Positions 22,531 through 63,700 of a DNA stretch of 64,000 bases are shown here, piece after piece. The notes below the pieces were generated by a model that was not told where the DNA came from, did no database searches, and saw nothing but the letters and a program-made list of their open reading frames with translations. Every line of letters begins with the position of its first letter. The first letter of the stretch is position 1. Source of the DNA: an uncultured delta proteobacterium. Lineage in GTDB: Bacteria; Desulfobacterota; Binatia; Binatales; Binataceae. The stretch lies in assembly GCA_963808235.1 (NCBI GenBank), contig CAWEEQ010000004.1, positions 608,001 to 672,000 on the forward strand, written 5' to 3'. The translations under genes were made by a program, and so were the position numbers.

Positions 22531-22600
22531 GGCTGATTAATCTTAGCAGATAAACACACCGCGATTAGGGGAATCAACCGAGCGACTCGAAACAACCCTT

Positions 22601-22629
22601 TGTCATTCTGAGCGCAGCGAAGAATCCCG
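22601..22629 (+). repeat. GTCAT-tagged REP-like repeat
   Basis: TGTCATTCTGAGCGCAGCGAAGAATCCCG, same family as 50591-51202. Confidence 0.85.
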
Positions 22630-22659: not shown

Positions 22660-22763
22660 ATCTTTCAGGCGGCCGAGAGCAAAATGGCGTTCGCGCTCTG
22701 TGGGCTGCTTTGCGATTGAATGGACACCGGGTGCAGGGGTCACCCCTGCCGCCCCGCGCGCAG
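22660..22763 (+). repeat. About 100-bp direct repeat (partner 24081-24177) containing a GCAGGGGTCACCCCTGC palindrome
   Basis: 45-bp exact core at 22709-22753 and 24122-24166, plus a shared GCGGCCGAGAGCAAAATGGCGTTCG. Confidence 0.88.
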
Positions 22764-26640: not shown

Positions 26641-27490
26641 CGCCTCTCCCTCGAGAGAGGCCGCGCGTCCGTCGCGGGTGAGGGCGCGCACATCGCGCTC
26701 GATGCCCAGCACGGCACCTCCAACGGATGGCGACGAAAGTCGCCATCCGTTTCTTGGTTGTTTATTTTTGTGTCATCCTGAGCGGAGGCTGCCGGAGTCG
26801 AAGGATCTCCGCGAAGCGATGCTCCCTCCTACCTCGCCCGTGTATTGATGCGCGAGTTTCCTAGTCGCGCCACCACCCTTAACTGCTCAGCAGCCCAAAC
26901 TCAAAGGTACTCCAGAAATCTCCGCCCAGCGTGGCAGCCGAGCGGGCAGCCAACCCAACCAACCCCCGAACACCGCTACCCCCAGCGCCCTCGCATCTTA
27001 TTTTTGTGTCATCCCGAGCGAAGCCGAGGGACCCCGGATCTTTCTCGACGCCGACCGATCGCACCCCCAATCCAATGCTCAATCGATACTCGGAAAACGA
27101 GACCGTCTTTCTTTGTTTCCCCTCGACTTGAGTTTCCCTCGGGTCATCCTGAGCGGCGGCTGCCGGAGTCGAAGGATCTCCGCGAAGCGATTTCTACCAA
27201 GCACAATTCTGGACGCATTAACCAAATGCCAATTCCTTCCCAAGCTCCGAGCACAGCGAAGAATCCCGTCTCCGGATGCGAAACCCACCATGGGTTTCGC
27301 CCTTCCCCTCGTGACGTGCAACTTCTCCGATACCTCGCCCGTTATTTTCACGGGAGACGACGCCGACCGCTCCGCGGTCGGTAGGTGAGGGTTCTGCGAT
27401 CCAAGCAACCCGCCGAACAACACACCTCAGCGTCCGCGCTCTTTGTGTCATTCCGGGCGAAGCCGAGGAACCCCGGATCTTTCTCAACGT
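26641..27490. repeat. Cluster of REP-like repeats from several families
   Basis: GTCAT-type copies at 26771, 27007, 27143 and 27446 (degenerate one at about 27245); CTCTCCC/GTGAGGG type at 26641 and about 27333; GAAACCCA..TGGGTTTC at about 27278. Confidence 0.85.
26722..26755 (+). terminator. Rho-independent terminator of hppA
   Basis: AACGGATGGCGAC-GAAA-GTCGCCATCCGTT followed by T-rich tail. Confidence 0.8.
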
Positions 27491-47697: not shown

Positions 47698-49185
47698 TTA
47701 CTTGAGCGCGCGGACCGAGAAGCCGCGGTCGTTGCTGCATAGCAGCGAGCGCTTGCCGTCGAGCACGGTCTCGAGCACGACCTCATGGCCCCACAATCGT
47801 TGCAGATACGCGAGGCTCTTTTCCGCGTATTCCAGATGAAGGTCGCGGGCGTCGTGCTGATGCTTCACATAAAGGGTGCGATTCTGGCCGAAGTCGGCAT
47901 CCTCGACCTTGAGCACTGGAATCGAGTTGGTGCCGACGTTCTTGATCAGCGTTTCCTTGACTTCGCGCCATCCGTCGTCGTCGGCGACTTTGCTCACCAC
48001 CAGTTCCTCGCCGCGCGCTTCGTACTCGAAGATGTCCATCTCGCGCATCAGGTCTTCGGTCAGATAGCGGCGCAGGAACGATGCGTCGCGCTCGACTTCG
48101 CGGGCCTCGAAAATCTTCTCGGTGCCGGTCTTCACCGGCGACCCGTCGCGCTTTATTTCCTCGGCGGTGGGTTCCGTGTAGCGCCGGTAAATGTCTTCCC
48201 AAATTTTGAGTCCGAGATGGTACGGGTTGATTTGGCCCGGAATCGGCCGCACGACCTGGTTGTGACGCACGATGAATTCGAGATGCAGTCCCTGGTCGAG
48301 ATCGAGCGATTCCAGAATCCGCTTGTGCCAGTAGCTGGCCCATCCCTCGTTCATGATCTTGGTTTCCGCCATCGAGACGAAGTACTTCGCTTCTTCGTCC
48401 GCGATAGTCAGCAGATCTTTTTCCCAATCGGCAAGAAACGGATTGTGATCGCGGATAAAGAGCAGCAGATCTTCGTCGGGCTCGAGCGGAACTTTGTGGA
48501 AATCGGGAACTTCGATTTCCTTGCGCGCATGGATCTTCTGAAATGGATCGGGCTGTCCCTGCGCGGCGGTCTCGGCGCGATCCAGTTGCTCGCGCGGGCT
48601 CAGTTTCTTGATCGCGAAATTGCGCCGGCACTGCCACGACAGCGCATGCGCCGCGTCGAGAATTCGCTCCACCTTCTCGACCCCGATCGAAGGATCCTCG
48701 ACGTAGCGGCGGACCCGGAGCGCATGCGCCTTGAAGATCTCGATCGTGTGTTCGGCGCGGGTCGACGATTTGTAGGTAAAATTGTTCTTGAAGAAATCGT
48801 TGTGCCCGTAGACGTGCGCGATCGTCAGGATCTGCAGGAGCATCGTGTTGTCGCGCATCAGGTACGCGATCGCCGGATTCGAATTGATCACCATCTCGTA
48901 GGGCAAGCCGCTGACCCCGTGATCGTAGAGCGTCTTCAGCTTTTCGTACGACTTGCCGTACGACCAATGCGGATAGTGCGAGGGCATCCCGGAGTACGCC
49001 ATGTACCCGAGCATCCCGGAGTGATCGCAAATCTCGAATTCCTGCGGGTAACAGTCGAGCCCGAACTCGGCCACCTTCTCGCGAATTTTTTCGTCCCACT
49101 CGACGAGGTCTTTTAGCTCGTAGGGGGCGATTTTGGCCACCTTGCCGACGCTTGCCGCGTTTGCGATTCCTTCGCCCGAGCTCAT
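47698..49185 (-). CDS. SpoVR/YcgB family protein
   Basis: YPHWSYGK, YEMVINSNP, AHVYGHNDFFKNN, TKIMNEGWASYWH. Confidence 0.95.
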   Translation of the reverse strand: MSSGEGIANAASVGKVAKIAPYELKDLVEWDEKIREKVAEFGLDCYPQEFEICDHSGMLGYMAYSGMPSHYPHWSYGKSYEKLKTLYDHGVSGLPYEMVINSNPAIAYLMRDNTMLLQILTIAHVYGHNDFFKNNFTYKSSTRAEHTIEIFKAHALRVRRYVEDPSIGVEKVERILDAAHALSWQCRRNFAIKKLSPREQLDRAETAAQGQPDPFQKIHARKEIEVPDFHKVPLEPDEDLLLFIRDHNPFLADWEKDLLTIADEEAKYFVSMAETKIMNEGWASYWHKRILESLDLDQGLHLEFIVRHNQVVRPIPGQINPYHLGLKIWEDIYRRYTEPTAEEIKRDGSPVKTGTEKIFEAREVERDASFLRRYLTEDLMREMDIFEYEARGEELVVSKVADDDGWREVKETLIKNVGTNSIPVLKVEDADFGQNRTLYVKHQHDARDLHLEYAEKSLAYLQRLWGHEVVLETVLDGKRSLLCSNDRGFSVRALK

Positions 49186-50525
49186 GATTCCTTTACCCGG
49201 TCCTTGGCCAGGAACGCCTTGAACGACGGCCAGATGTCCTCTTTGCGTTCGATCAGCACGGTGTGGAAGTTGGGCGCCTGGATTCGGCGGAACACGTTGA
49301 GCATCGAAGATTCATAGTAGCGCGAGCCGAGCGGTTTGATTTCGCCGTAGCCGAACAGGTTGCAGATGGTGGCGAGTTCCTCCGCGTCTTTGAGCGCGGC
49401 GGGATTGTCGGAGTCGAAGTTGTCGCCGTCGGAGCAGTGGAACGCGTACACGTTCCACAAGGACGGATGGTAGCGCGCGGCGATGATCTCCAGCGCCTTC
49501 GCGTATCCCGATGAAATGAAAGTGCCGCCCGATTCACCCTTGTGGAAGAACTCTTCCTCGGTGACCTCGCTGGCCTCCGTGTGATGCGCGATGAAAACGA
49601 TTTCGACGTTGCGGTAGCGGGTCGAGATGAACTGGTAGAGGAGAAAGAAGAAGCTGCGCGCGAGATACTTCTTCATCGTGTCCATCGAGCCCGAGGTATC
49701 CATGATGCAAATGACCGCGGCGTTGGACTCTTCCTTGGTGTCGACTTCGACGTGCTTGTAGCGCAAGTCATCCTGATGGAACGGGAAGCGCCGCTTGACG
49801 CGCTGGAACGCGGCGACGGTTGCGGGAGCGAGCGCTTCCTCATCGGGTGTGCCTTGGTCGAGAGTGCCTTCTTCGAGCGCGATTTCATCCAGCGCGCCTT
49901 CAACGTCGGCGTCGGCGCCGATTTCGCGGTCGGCCTTCGACTCGGCCAGGGCGCGCGCGGCCGCATCGTTGCGTTTGTCCGACGCGAGCATCCGCATCAC
50001 GCGCTGCTTGGCGGTGCGCCGCTTGTCGAGCCGGATGCGGATGCCGACCTTGCGGTAGCCTTTGCGCCGCGACGAGTATTCGGACTGGATTTCGCGCAGC
50101 GCGCGGCGTTCGAGGTTGGGCAGCTCGAGATCCTCGAACATGATCTCGATCAGCTCCTCGAGGGTGACGTCGGTCTCGTAGTAGTCGACGCCGGGACGAT
50201 CGCCGGCATGTTCGTCGCCCTTGCCGAGGCCGTCCTTGCCGGTCTTGCCGACGACCTGGCCGGGGCGGGTCTCGCCGTCGCCCTGCGATGCGCCGGGGGC
50301 GTTGTCGCCGTAGACGAAGCGGTATTCCTTGATTCCGCGGAGCGGAACCTTGATGACGCGATCTTTATCTTTGCCGATGATCGATTCTTCGGCGATTATG
50401 TCGGCGATATTTTCGCGGATCGATTCGCGGACTTTCTGGCGATGGCGCAGCCGGTCGCCGGCTGAGCGATCGGAGCGCTCGGCGTCGGAAATCCGGTACT
50501 CGCGGAAGATTGTGTCGCCGCTCAT
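49182..50525 (-). CDS. YeaH/YhbH (DUF444) vWA-like protein
   Basis: MDTSGSM, ESGGT.ISS, HCSDGDN, FGYGEI. Confidence 0.95.
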   Translation of the reverse strand: MSGDTIFREYRISDAERSDRSAGDRLRHRQKVRESIRENIADIIAEESIIGKDKDRVIKVPLRGIKEYRFVYGDNAPGASQGDGETRPGQVVGKTGKDGLGKGDEHAGDRPGVDYYETDVTLEELIEIMFEDLELPNLERRALREIQSEYSSRRKGYRKVGIRIRLDKRRTAKQRVMRMLASDKRNDAAARALAESKADREIGADADVEGALDEIALEEGTLDQGTPDEEALAPATVAAFQRVKRRFPFHQDDLRYKHVEVDTKEESNAAVICIMDTSGSMDTMKKYLARSFFFLLYQFISTRYRNVEIVFIAHHTEASEVTEEEFFHKGESGGTFISSGYAKALEIIAARYHPSLWNVYAFHCSDGDNFDSDNPAALKDAEELATICNLFGYGEIKPLGSRYYESSMLNVFRRIQAPNFHTVLIERKEDIWPSFKAFLAKDRVKES

Positions 50526-50590
50526 AGTTGCATCACAGGGGCTGTTTGCGTCGCGGAACTCAACGCACTGTGATTGCCTTGGGCGCGGCT

Positions 50591-51203
50591 CCGGGTTTCT
50601 TCGCTGCGCTCAGAATGACACAAAAAACAGACTCCACTCGGAAGAACATAAAACATCAACCCTGTGGATCGAACTTTCATTCTGGTTCTTTGTGGGTCTG
50701 CTCTGCGTCCTTGTGTCATTCTGAGCGAAGCGAAGAAACCCGGTCTTCGCTCGACACAGCACTCAAGTCCTGCCACGAGGGGTTTTCTTGTTCAATCAGT
50801 GCAATCTTTTTTGACCGCGTTAGGGACTTAATATGTTTCTCGGCTTCAATCGCTGCGCCGATGTCGTTTGTCTCCTGGAAATAGACTAAACGGTCGATGC
50901 CGTAGCGTTTTGTGAATCCGTCGAGGGTGCCGCTTTTGTGTTCGTACACGCGGCGTTCGAGATCGTTGGTCACGCCAACGTAGAGCGTTCGCGAGATGCT
51001 GCTCATGATGTAGACGAAGTAGGACTTGGGGCTCGATGTTCTTCGCGTGGTCATCCGGGTTTCCTTGCTTCGCTCGGAATGACACAACGATCAGGCACGG
51101 AATTGAGGAAAGGCACGATGTCCTCGCTTCGCCTTGGGTCTTGGAGGGTCGATGTTCTTCGCGTGGTCATCCGGGTTTCCTTGCTTCGCTCGGAATGACA
51201 CAA
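50591..51203. repeat. Four GTCAT-tagged repeats around the GIY-YIG gene
   Basis: Copies at 50591-50622 (-), 50712-50743 (+), 51055-51086 (-), 51171-51202 (-); exact 55-bp duplication 51033-51087 / 51149-51203. Confidence 0.92.
50716..51054 (-). CDS. Small stand-alone GIY-YIG nuclease
   Basis: YFVYIM...TLYVGVTNDLERRVYEHK, GFTKRY, AIEAEKHIK, NPSWQDL. Confidence 0.92.
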   Translation of the reverse strand: MTTRRTSSPKSYFVYIMSSISRTLYVGVTNDLERRVYEHKSGTLDGFTKRYGIDRLVYFQETNDIGAAIEAEKHIKSLTRSKKIALIEQENPSWQDLSAVSSEDRVSSLRSE

Positions 51204-51259
51204 AGACCAGACTCGGCTCAGTCAGATTGGTCGTTTGCTTGTTCCTCGGCGTTATTTGC

Positions 51260-53194
51260 TTAATCCTTCCACAAATTGTTGGCTGCGTACTTCAGGACTA
51301 CGTCTACGCAGGATTCGCAGTAGCCGTTTTCCAGCAGGTTTTTTACCATCGAGCTGTACTTTTCGCCTTGCTCCTCGTCGCGGGTGCGGGCCTTGGTGAT
51401 GATGCGTGAGATGTCGCGGACCGAGGTCATCAGCTTTTTCTCGATCGCTTCCTTGAGCGGCTCGTAGCTCTTGTAGCTGATCTTCTCGTTGCGCCGCGAA
51501 GTGGCCCACAGGTACGCGATCACTTCCTGGCGGAATCCGTCGGCGGCCGAGCCGATTATCGCGATCTGCTCTTCGATCGACTTCAGGAACCCTTCGTCCG
51601 GCGACAGTTCCTCATTGGTATTCCGGTCGCGGACGCGGGTCTTATTGACGTAGGCCTCGGCGTGATCGAGGTAGTTCTGGAACAGCGATTCCGCCTGCTC
51701 CTGGTAGGAGTAAACGAACGCGCGGGTGATCTCTTTTTCGAGCAGGTCGAGATATTCCTTGTGCAGCGTGTCCTGCAGGAACTCGAGGTACTGCTTGCGG
51801 GTATCGTCGGGCAGGTCGCCCTCCTTGGTCATCGAGATGAGCGCCTCGCGCACGTTGATCGGATTGATGCAGTTGCCGGTGACGTTGTCGGAGAGCGCAT
51901 TGTCGAGCGCCTTCATGATGAAGCGGGTCGAGATTCCCGACATCCCTTCGCGCTTGGTGTCCTCTTTCAGTTCCTGCACGTCGATCTTCTTGGTGCGTCC
52001 CTTCTCGACGACTTCCTCGCCGTTGTAGAGCCGCAGCTTGGTCATCAGATCGCATTTTGAGGTCGGCTCGAGCCGCGACAGGATCGCGTACATCGAGGCG
52101 AGCTCGAGCGTGTGCGGCGCCACGTGCGCGCGGAAGTCGGAGTTCCTGATGATCTTCTGATAGATCTTCACTTCTTCCGACAGGCGCAGGTTGTAGGGCA
52201 CCTTGACCACGACGATACGATCGAGGATCGCCTCGTTGGTGTGATCGGCTTTGAACTTCTGCCATTCCGCTTCGTTCGAATGCGCGACGATGCAGGTATC
52301 GACGTAGACCATCCCATGCCGCCCCGGCGCCGGAATGACTTTTTCCTGGGTCGCCGTGATCATCGCGTGCAGGTACTCGGTCTCGTTCTTGAAGACTTCG
52401 ATGAACTCGACGATCCCGCGGTTGCCGACGTTGAGCGCGCCGTTAAGCTCGAGCACGCGGGGGTCGCCTTCCGAATACTGATCGAGTTTCGAGATGTCTT
52501 CCGATCCGATCAGAACCGAGGTGTCCTGGTTATTCGGATCGACCGGCGGAACCACGCCGACACCGACCCGGTTGCGCTTGGAGAAGGCGCGCGCGGAGAT
52601 CGGGAATTCCTCGTAACGGTTGTTGAACTCGGATTTCAGGCGATAGCGGCATACCGGGCAGAGATCGCCCTCGATGTGCACGCCGAGCATCTTCTCGAAC
52701 TCGCGGCGCAGATGGCGCGGGACGAGATGCAGCGGCTCCTCGTTCATCGGGCATCCTTCGATCGCGTAAATCAGGCCGACCTGCTCGAGGCCGCGCTGGA
52801 TGCGCTCGACCAGCGAGCTCTTGCCCGATCCGACCGGTCCCATCAGGTACAGAACCTGACGGCTCTCTTCGCCCTTGAGCGAGGCGGAATGGAAGTAGCG
52901 GACTATCTGCGCGATAGTGCGCTCGATTCCGAAAAATTCCTCGGCGAAGAAGTTGAAGACCTTGATCGGCTCGTCCTTGTAGAGCCGCTTGGTACGGGGA
53001 TCATCGGTGTCGGACAGCGGATGCAAGCCCGACGAGATGATCAGATCGTAGATGCGCGCGTGCGAGAGCTTGGTCATGATCGGGTCGGCCTTGACCAGCT
53101 CGAGGTATTCGAGCAGCGTGCCGCGCCATTGTTTCGACTCGCGCGCGGCGCGGTCTTCCTTGATCACTCGCTCGAAGTGGTTGAGATCCGCCAT
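51260..53194 (-). CDS. prkA: PrkA/YeaG family serine protein kinase/AAA+ ATPase
   Basis: GPVGSGKSS, NRGIVEFIE.FK, AHSNEAEW, GMSGISTRF. Confidence 0.95.
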   Translation of the reverse strand: MADLNHFERVIKEDRAARESKQWRGTLLEYLELVKADPIMTKLSHARIYDLIISSGLHPLSDTDDPRTKRLYKDEPIKVFNFFAEEFFGIERTIAQIVRYFHSASLKGEESRQVLYLMGPVGSGKSSLVERIQRGLEQVGLIYAIEGCPMNEEPLHLVPRHLRREFEKMLGVHIEGDLCPVCRYRLKSEFNNRYEEFPISARAFSKRNRVGVGVVPPVDPNNQDTSVLIGSEDISKLDQYSEGDPRVLELNGALNVGNRGIVEFIEVFKNETEYLHAMITATQEKVIPAPGRHGMVYVDTCIVAHSNEAEWQKFKADHTNEAILDRIVVVKVPYNLRLSEEVKIYQKIIRNSDFRAHVAPHTLELASMYAILSRLEPTSKCDLMTKLRLYNGEEVVEKGRTKKIDVQELKEDTKREGMSGISTRFIMKALDNALSDNVTGNCINPINVREALISMTKEGDLPDDTRKQYLEFLQDTLHKEYLDLLEKEITRAFVYSYQEQAESLFQNYLDHAEAYVNKTRVRDRNTNEELSPDEGFLKSIEEQIAIIGSAADGFRQEVIAYLWATSRRNEKISYKSYEPLKEAIEKKLMTSVRDISRIITKARTRDEEQGEKYSSMVKNLLENGYCESCVDVVLKYAANNLWKD

Positions 53195-55154: not shown

Positions 55155-55269
55155 GCATCGAGCTGAATGCGCGCGCCCTCACCCGACGCAGCGTCGGCCT
55201 CTCCCGGGGGGAGAGGCGAATCAGGAAATCGCTTGGCGGGAAGCCCCTTCGACTTCGCTCAGGACGACA
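55155..55269. repeat. REP-like repeats: inverted copy of 26641-26706 plus a GTC(A/G)T-type copy
   Basis: GCGCGCCCTCACCCG...CCTCTCCCGGGGGGAGAGGCG; CCCTTCGACTTCGCTCAGGACGACA. Confidence 0.75.
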
Positions 55270-63364: not shown

Positions 63365-63700
63365 AGGAAATCGCTTCGCGGAGGTTCCTTCGGCAGGGCT
63401 CAGGACAGGCTCTTCGACTCCAGCAGCTTTCGCTCAGGACGACGGAAAGGAGCGGAGCCCTGCAGGCGATGGCATCGAGGTGGATGCGCGCGCCCTAACC
63501 CGTCGAGTGGGCGCGACGACCTCTCCCGAAGGGAGAGGTTTGCATAACCTCAGCGCGGCTTCGGAGCAGAGCAGAATCTTGAATCGCGCGCCAGAAAACG
63601 CGCGCTGGATAAGGTCCCTCGCCTTCAATCCTCTCCCATCGGGAGAGGGGATGATGCCTCGACTGGTTACGCAAAGGTCTCCGAAGGGAGAGGTGTAGGA
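63365..63700. repeat. Cluster of REP-like repeats
   Basis: TTCGCTCAGGACGACGG (about 63430), GCGCGCCCTAACCCG..CCTCTCCCGAAGGGAGAGG (about 63487-63538), CCTCTCCCATCGGGAGAGG (about 63630). Confidence 0.75.

Follow-up and report, generated by a model that had tools for sequence, protein, structure and literature searches.

A probable Ssn-family GIY-YIG nuclease gene and its cognate hairpin repeats in an uncultured Binataceae bacterium

In a 64,000-nucleotide stretch of the genome of an uncultured Binataceae bacterium (contig CAWEEQ010000004.1 of assembly GCA_963808235.1, positions 608,001 to 672,000; hereafter the window), the genes prkA and yeaH are separated by a small gene for a GIY-YIG nuclease, enclosed by four hairpin repeats of a dispersed family. 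What is this gene to the repeats around it, and how did the unit come to lie here? Judged from sequence, the gene very probably encodes an endonuclease of the Ssn family, a single-domain GIY-YIG protein of about 100 amino acids (aa), with the surrounding TGTCAT hairpins as its cognate repeats, of the type named Ssn-related motifs (SRM). This pairing of gene and repeat has already been published as Ssn (Chenal et al., Nat Commun 2025, PMC11893778, to which we refer as far as excerpts of its text go), and the locus adds an example to a known system. An initial annotation of the window had proposed a GIY-YIG nuclease as the mobilizer or cognate enzyme of repeats with a GTCAT tag, in a unit that lacks a RAYT transposase; the idea of a cognate enzyme is right, agrees with the published account of Ssn and SRM (PMC11893778), and is therefore not new, while the mobilizer part is a hypothesis, in the literature as in the present analysis.

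A nuclease gene enclosed by tagged hairpins

The gene occupies 50716-51054 on the minus strand and encodes 112 aa counted from its ATG, with the open frame reaching back to a TTG at 51087. The sole Pfam match of the protein is the GIY-YIG domain PF01541 (residues 12-83, E 2.5e-14). Read along the gene strand, the locus consists of a hairpin repeat at 51171-51207 (minus strand), a second one at 51055-51090 (minus strand, TTCC/GGAA subtype), which points into the gene and stops one base before the ATG, the gene itself, an inverted repeat at 50711-50743 (plus strand, TTCT/AGAA subtype) that forms the right inverted repeat of the cassette, and a fourth copy at 50591-50623 (minus strand), which has the orientation of the upstream copies and lies 65 nt before the start of yeaH. 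The inverted repeat codes for the end of the protein (...SSLRSE), supplying its last six codons and the TGA stop. The initial annotation had described a 112-aa GIY-YIG gene between prkA and yeaH with four repeat copies, one of them directly 5' of the ATG and an inverted one providing the last codons and the stop, and the open reading frame (ORF), the Pfam match, the repeat searches and the sequence itself all bear this out.

A degenerate 20-mer representing the repeat (TGTCATTCYGAGCGMAGCRA) was searched across the whole window with up to two mismatches. It has five matches (22601+, 50601-, 50714+, 51065- and 51181-) where 0.01 would be expected by chance, and none of 100 shuffled sequences reached this number. 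Four of the five surround the nuclease gene, all within 160 nt of the ORF and in inverted orientation across it, and the copies at 50591-50623 and 50711-50743 match without a mismatch. The four repeats act as inverted-repeat arms that are 89-97% complementary, with 97% for 50591-50623 against 50711-50743. Absent from the initial annotation was a truncated duplicate of the left end of the cassette at 51146-51216 (minus strand), which comprises the hairpin repeat 51171-51207 and ~24 nt from the start of the nuclease gene and is a 93% tandem duplicate of 51030-51100 with a 116-nt period.

At loci L040-L042, L045 and L046, too, the nuclease ORF continues into the inverted repeat on its 3' side and closes with SSLRSE, as at 50716-50736 of the window; the C-terminal tail and the stop codon are supplied by the repeat in separate nuclease clades.

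The repeat itself (TGTCATTCYGAGCGMAGCGAAGAAWCCCGG) starts with the GTCAT tag, its palindrome opens at the A of this tag, and a C follows the palindrome; the tail in this family is CCCGG. GA/GA mismatches interrupt the stem around a GCGNAGC apex, a combination that we take to be the classic, very stable mini-hairpin of the DNA type. The outer stem occurs in several subtypes, each of them still complementary (TTCT/AGAA, TCCC/GGGA, TTCC/GGAA and TCCT/AGGA). Covariation was scored at seven pairs in 85 repeats, four of these pairs being forced by the sequence selection. The first unforced pair is G-C in 71 repeats, A-T in 13 and C-G in one, and is never unpaired, while the second is C-G in 58, T-A in eight, T-G in six and something else in 13. 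The TGTC tag is invariant, the first stem pair is A-T in 77 of the 85 repeats, and the next one is T-A in 81 and C-G in four.

The window belongs to contig C4 of a 4.59-Mb assembly (G000) of four contigs, which is 93% complete. In this genome the pattern GTCATYCN{1,2}GAGCG has 96 matches against one for its backwards control, and a hairpin-aware filter retains ~100 repeat copies. A search with PF01541 returned six genes, namely four small GIY-YIG genes and two of the UvrC type, and inverted tagged hairpins bracket all four of the small ones. No RAYT accompanies the repeat elsewhere in the genome, the RAYT family PF01797 having zero matches in this 93% complete assembly, as the initial annotation would have it. 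A 339-aa GIY-YIG frame at C4:1301448-1302467 was considered as a fifth Ssn and rejected as UvrC-like; it is additional to a 674-aa UvrC-type frame at C4:2302447 and lies ~450 nt downstream of a solo repeat, which is probably a coincidence.

Association with hairpins across phyla

Is the enclosure of the gene a peculiarity of this genome? We collected 80 homolog loci (L051-L130, one genome scanned per species) with nucleases 51-75% identical, from Chloroflexota, Acidobacteriota, Verrucomicrobiota, Ignavibacteriota, Cyanobacteria, Planctomycetota, the CPR and Firmicutes metagenome-assembled genomes. A tagged hairpin pointing into the gene lies within 300 nt upstream at 64 of the 80 loci (6/80 in the reversed-sequence control), and an inverted hairpin is found downstream at 65 (control 5/80). 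Both are present at 55 loci (control 1/80), and either one at 74 (control 10/80). The enrichment of tagged hairpins near homologs that the initial annotation had predicted is thus clearly seen. These counts come from the second of two detectors; the first, which required perfect 6-nt arms and was replaced since it is blind to outer stems of 4-5 bp, had scored only 21, 22 and 8 of the 80 loci, with 9, 12 and 2 for its control. A local-alignment scan for terminal inverted repeats was judged by eye only, and no counts were drawn from it. The high identity of the nucleases across phyla is unusual and suggests their horizontal spread.

The count of 74 loci against 10 in the control led us to reject both a chance association of gene and repeat and the reading of the gene as a plain housekeeping UPF0213 protein. 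A free-standing homing endonuclease of the Seg or I-TevI type was rejected as well, there being no second domain in the 112 aa and a TIGR01453 score of 18.5 bits against a cut-off of 56.

Nuclease and repeat also vary together. A tree of 41 nucleases shows five starred clades, every one with a hairpin subtype of its own, in agreement with the earlier proposal that repeat subtype co-varies with nuclease clade. One of these clades (L034, L109 and L113) carries near-canonical copies of the NTS, the hairpin recognized by the Neisseria meningitidis enzyme SsnA; they flank L109 and L113, whose proteins are 56-57% identical to the one in the window, and L034 (42%). SsnA is a 94-aa single-domain GIY-YIG protein (cd10448), which binds the NTS hairpin (CGTCATTCCCGCGMAVGCGGGAATCYRG) solely in single-stranded DNA (ssDNA) and cuts a few nt upstream of it, and whose mutation at Y6, Y17 or E64 abolishes cutting (PMC11893778). 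In the 112-aa protein Y15, Y25, R35, H39, E72 and N91 show no variation across 12 relatives (alignment A1), and from their spacing we infer that Y15, Y25 and E72 match the three SsnA residues.

If the protein resembles the four Ssn enzymes that Chenal et al. assayed, it would bind the top strand of its repeat when this is single-stranded and folded into a hairpin. Cutting of ssDNA, which we infer from the same analogy, would take place a few nt 5' of the GTCAT tag, with no action on duplex DNA or RNA. The unit of repeat, gene and inverted repeat is, on this reading, a cassette that comes and goes, present in the prkA-yeaH spacer of about half the genus and, as a sister copy, newly inserted between hemH and hemY in the same genome, with the ~100 solo and paired repeats elsewhere as gene-less copies of the cassette ends.

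Several such copies lie in the window away from the nuclease gene. A solo repeat of the TTCT subtype is found at 22600-22628 (plus strand) with a conserved tail (CCCGAATCTTTTTCG) directly after it, and a cluster of four same-strand repeats of three subtypes (26771-27476, plus strand, starting at 26772, 27008, 27143 and 27447) fills part of a 990-nt gap between long ORFs. The 13-mer core of the repeat has 17 matches in the window against 5.84 expected; the four copies of the cluster each differ from it by one mismatch. All the further copies listed in the initial annotation exist, those at 55224-55268 and 63405-63443 (both minus strand) being degenerate variants of the long TCCT subtype, which have two mismatches to the core (at 55256 and 63431) and carry a GTCGT rather than a GTCAT tag. 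It had also called the copies always intergenic. Those at 26772-27447, 55256 and 63431 do all lie between ORFs of at least 130 aa, with the qualification that an unchecked 179-aa ORF (26845-27384) overlaps the 26772-27447 group.

Further dispersed repeat families, among them GGGTGCAGGGGTCACCCCTGCC palindromes and CTCTCCCT-ACAGGGAGAGG...GGGTGAGGGTCC units, adjoin the hairpins at 22720-22750 of the window and in many places of this genome, where repeats of several classes abound. The window also holds a complete rRNA operon (16S, two tRNAs, 23S and 5S) at 37736-43299 with ordinary Rfam matches.

Intergenic repeats, often placed directly after stop codons, might alternatively be RNA elements in the main, such as terminators or mRNA stabilizers, among which the nuclease gene merely happens to lie, and many repetitive extragenic palindromes (REPs) have indeed been proposed to be transcribed and to act as RNA (Di Nocera et al. 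2013, PMC3733652). We consider this very improbable, given that it leaves the nuclease association at 74 of 80 loci unexplained and that SsnA does not bind the RNA form of the NTS (PMC11893778). Rfam contains nothing at the locus, either in the whole window at gathering thresholds or at E values up to 10 in 50400-51400. The GCGNAGC apex with its GA/GA flanks, presumably a mini-hairpin of the DNA type, likewise speaks against an RNA role.

Filled and empty sites in the genus

How the unit came to lie here can be approached through its relatives. In the window prkA, a yeaG-type serine protein kinase gene (51260-53194; PF08298 E 5e-147, PF06798 E 8e-88), is the upstream gene of an operon continued by yeaH (DUF444, 49182-50525; PF04285 E 9e-127) and, as the third gene, a spoVR-like one (47698-49185; PF04293 E 3e-143), all on the minus strand. 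We compared 25 prkA-yeaH junctions in 24 genomes of the genus. The nuclease gene (ssn) is present at 13 of them, always at one position and in one orientation, intact in 10 and degraded in three (L013, L016 and L020). Six junctions are bare, with a spacer of 17-24 bp (five without L005, from the unpublished genome G023), four contain repeats only (one, two, two and three copies), and two have some other spacer. The statement in the initial annotation that the two genes are normally adjacent therefore holds for these six, the other 19 having ssn, repeats or another spacer between them, and the empty site that it had suggested looking for exists in relatives. On a yeaH tree the starred branches mark at least four changes of the ssn label. 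The smallest cassette (L029), running from tgtGTCAT to ATGACaca, almost fills the prkA-yeaH spacer by itself.

Two further features of this spacer were noted. In most relatives whose site is occupied, a conserved segment of ~150 nt (…ttctgacggaacgaagctaccgatggtagt…ccaccacctatggtatg…) stands between the final repeat and yeaH, its carriers being the prkA-yeaH spacers L002, L007, L008, L009, L012-L014, L016 and L020; it is missing from the window and from L029, and the repeat-only spacer L015 has a weak likeness of it. In L007 (genome G021) a truncated left end of the cassette is followed by the final ~35 nt of prkA once more, up to the same stop, an arrangement that looks like an illegitimate junction of the ssn 5' region with the prkA 3' end.

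A second site gives a sharper picture. The hemH-hemY spacer of this genome measures 1264 bp and contains a sister ssn copy and at least seven repeats. In the other genomes of the genus with both flanks, neither ssn nor a repeat is found there (24 of 24, or 23 of 23 without the unpublished G018), and the spacer is 0-67 bp long except at L160, where it is 191 bp between partial flank matches. The closest relative, with a hemY 90% identical, is among the sites that lack ssn. Since the cassette is absent from all 24 relatives, the hemH-hemY copy is an insertion in the lineage of the present genome. Its nuclease belongs to the same starred clade (clade A) as the copies at the prkA site and one copy at another site in genome G006, so that clade A occupies at least three sites: prkA-yeaH, hemH-hemY in G000 and the one in G006. 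From the empty, repeat-only and occupied prkA-yeaH sites together with the hemH-hemY insertion we conclude that the cassette is gained and lost.

Repeat numbers vary within the genus. All 25 genomes contain matches to GTCATYCN{1,2}GAGCG, between 13 and 192 each, and 19 of the 24 relatives have a match to the 112-aa nuclease, the number of ssn copies per genome ranging from 0 to 5. A different small GIY-YIG ORF occurs in three of the five relatives that lack a match to this protein. Among 16 genomes from outside the genus, 14 contain no more than 10 pattern matches; the remaining two contain 43 and 48 and each yield a GIY-YIG match, and L036, the GIY-YIG locus read from those two, has no flanking repeats. 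Repeat count had been expected to track nuclease presence, which it does only loosely, as G013 and G019 illustrate.

Several results weigh against the explanation given so far. The two genomes just named have 66 and 39 repeat matches, respectively, with no small GIY-YIG ORF found at 82% and 87% completeness. Among PDB sequences the protein matches only UPF0213 members (1zg2, E 2.7e-7; 1ywl, E 4.7e-5), and a search of NCBIfam returned no Ssn-specific model and nothing above cut-off. The yeaH tree scatters the site states and is too unresolved to polarize ancestral against secondary empty sites. At the junctions read, where the spacers are poorly conserved, no target-site duplication was recognized. 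The Z-scores of nearest-neighbour DNA folding (-0.97 to +1.28) give the hairpin no advantage, and the expected hairpin is the predicted minimum-free-energy fold in one of six copies, that at 22600-22628; because the covariation is strong, we do not hold these non-significant energies against it. Finally, the published degenerate SRM string (HGTCWYN(0-2)YYVSBRHN(0-5)WNVSBRGN(0-2)RNCYNB) has 26 matches in this genome, and only one of them (C4:635446) is a copy of the family.

The string misses the family because the GA/GA interruption breaks it. This GA-bulged type makes up most of the 82 short (25-nt) hairpins from the 80 cross-phylum loci. The published association figures, with at least one SRM near 71% of homolog genes and SRMs on both sides in 42% (PMC11893778), are therefore likely underestimates. 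A literature search with 13-mers of the repeat returned only unrelated papers that hold one 13-mer by chance.

What, then, moves the cassette? It is conceivable, though rather doubtful, that nicks made by the nuclease itself set off the copying or movement of both the cassette and the gene-less repeats. The unit would then be an autonomous transposon resembling an insertion sequence, in which the GIY-YIG protein works as transposase or nickase on ssDNA and the solo and paired repeats are non-autonomous, an analogue of REPtrons and REPINs. This proposal, which we hold only tentatively, sharpens the Ssn explanation and does not contradict it. It is favoured by the terminal inverted repeats of the cassette (TGTGTCAT...ATGACACA), by the lineage-specific hemH-hemY insertion missing from 24 of 24 relatives, by the spread of clade A over at least three sites, and by nucleases 51-75% identical in many phyla. 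The gene-less copies point the same way: in the ~20 solo copies inspected, the repeat is followed by ~75 nt identical to the 5' leader of the gene, and several cassettes are bounded on the right by a truncated left end consisting of repeat, leader and 12-45 nt of ssn. Short TCTTTGTGTCA stutter arrays directly precede several repeats, at the position where published Ssn enzymes cut. A locus at C4:1.75 Mb contains three tandem copies of the repeat with the 5' end of the gene and three of the 3' end with the repeat.

At C4 ~1,749,000-1,750,700 and 1,803,400-1,805,000 (L032 and L033) the tandem triplications have periods of 210 nt (5' units) and 175 nt (3' units), and ~17-nt TCTTTGTGTCA(GCA) stutter arrays lie 5' of the repeats, about where the published enzymes cut. 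Regular repeat arrays that resemble BIME-like clusters were seen at C4:1002101-1002827 and 1538833-1539211, one of them with alternating orientation and a 283-nt period, another with the same orientation throughout and a 189-nt period.

A self-mobilizing bacterial transposon of ~450 bp that encodes nothing but a 100-aa single-strand nickase of the GIY-YIG type is a kind not yet demonstrated, and we would call its existence here unlikely. If it were real, the truncated left ends and the TCTTTGTGTCA stutters at the predicted cut site would be the footprints of the element, the ~100 solo and paired hairpins its non-autonomous offspring, and the hemH-hemY insertion and the prkA-yeaH mosaic direct records of its activity. 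To our knowledge, no GIY-YIG enzyme has strand-transfer or joining chemistry. Neither a target-site duplication nor a circle junction was found. The assembled contigs of public sequencing runs, which contain at most 0.33 of the sampled words, give no sign of excision in one population: the only joint in these soil contigs, an X1 contig that connects 50525 to 51258 through 16 other letters, was rejected as an excision product, its ~88% identity marking it as the empty site of a relative. GC skew is weak, and the strand counts of the repeats in three segments (22+/15-, 37+/17- and 2+/3-) reveal no clear bias. Chenal et al. likened the NTS-ssnA-NTS layout to insertion sequences and to REP/RAYT, offering mobility in their Discussion as a hypothesis only (PMC11893778), and our literature search for follow-up work on Ssn mobility found none. 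Recombination between repeats could also account for the insertions, as could transfer combined with repair, with no dedicated transposase.

A role in limiting the recombination of incoming or repeat-bearing ssDNA, as in Neisseria, is equally possible by analogy. There, deletion of ssnA raises transformation 5-fold, and only for NTS-bearing DNA (PMC11893778). In its strong form, this would make the nuclease a domesticated host system that cuts incoming or exposed ssDNA at the repeats and tunes recombination, the repeats having spread by other means. The constant position and orientation of the prkA-yeaH copy in 13 junctions, its intactness in 10 and the conserved catalytic residues all fit such a system. 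The degradation of three of the 13 copies and a copy number of 0 to 5 per genome speak against it, as do the frequent gains and losses, which are more like a selfish element, and we give full domestication less than an even chance.

Under the Ssn explanation, the locus mostly bears out the 2025 discovery, now in another, uncultured lineage from soil, and reveals a GA-bulged hairpin type that the published search string misses. The filled and empty sites, especially the insertion missing from 24 of 24 relatives, provide material on whether Ssn cassettes move themselves.

Comparison with known systems

The only solved relatives found by sequence, the UPF0213/YhbQ proteins (PDB 1zg2 and 1ywl), share fold and size with the 112-aa nuclease, but their similarity to it is far weaker than that of the repeat-flanked homologs. 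Two UPF0213-like relatives that were inspected (L035 and L036) have no flanking tagged hairpins, unlike the present gene. Elements of the IS200/IS605 group resemble the cassette in being small, in having subterminal hairpins that are read as ssDNA and in having no long flat terminal repeats; in contrast to them, the cassette has neither TnpA nor TnpB, and no lagging-strand bias could be shown for it.

The likeness to REPtrons, in which a RAYT is combined with GTAG-tagged REPs or REPINs, is closer. In both cases inverted copies of a hairpin repeat that is dispersed through the genome flank a small nuclease gene, many singlets and doublets occur without the gene, and the enzyme is specific for single-stranded hairpin DNA, or would be so by analogy in the present system. 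The enzymes and tags differ, with HUH Y1 and GTAG in REPtrons against GIY-YIG and GTCAT here, in a genome with no PF01797 match.

Di Nocera, De Gregorio and Rocco (BMC Genomics 2013, PMC3733652) named a class of CGTC/TGTC-tagged REPs, which 'apparently lack a dedicated transposase'. As in the present repeat, these are short palindromes with the CGTC/TGTC tag at one end and a stem starting with A-T; head-to-head dimers are frequent, and the class includes dRS3 of Neisseria (PMC3733652). Their tails are CCA, whereas those of the present family are CCCGG, and the excerpts of that survey list neither this phylum nor the GA-bulged form.

The closest system is the published Ssn/SRM pair itself. Both comprise a ~100-aa single-domain GIY-YIG protein, inverted hairpins on both sides with a 5' (C/T)GTCAT tag, a palindrome that opens at the A and a trailing C, and a repeat that is dispersed through the genome, is mostly intergenic and varies in step with its nuclease (PMC11893778). 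As far as the excerpts of that paper extend, the present system differs in its GA/GA-interrupted hairpin around a GCGNAGC apex, which the SRM string does not match, and in its host from an uncultured soil lineage. Both filled and empty sites are on record for it. Finally, unlike in the published cases, four paralogs, each with a repeat subtype of its own, share a single genome and could serve as a panel of orthogonal ssDNA cutters for the tools proposed by Chenal et al. (PMC11893778).

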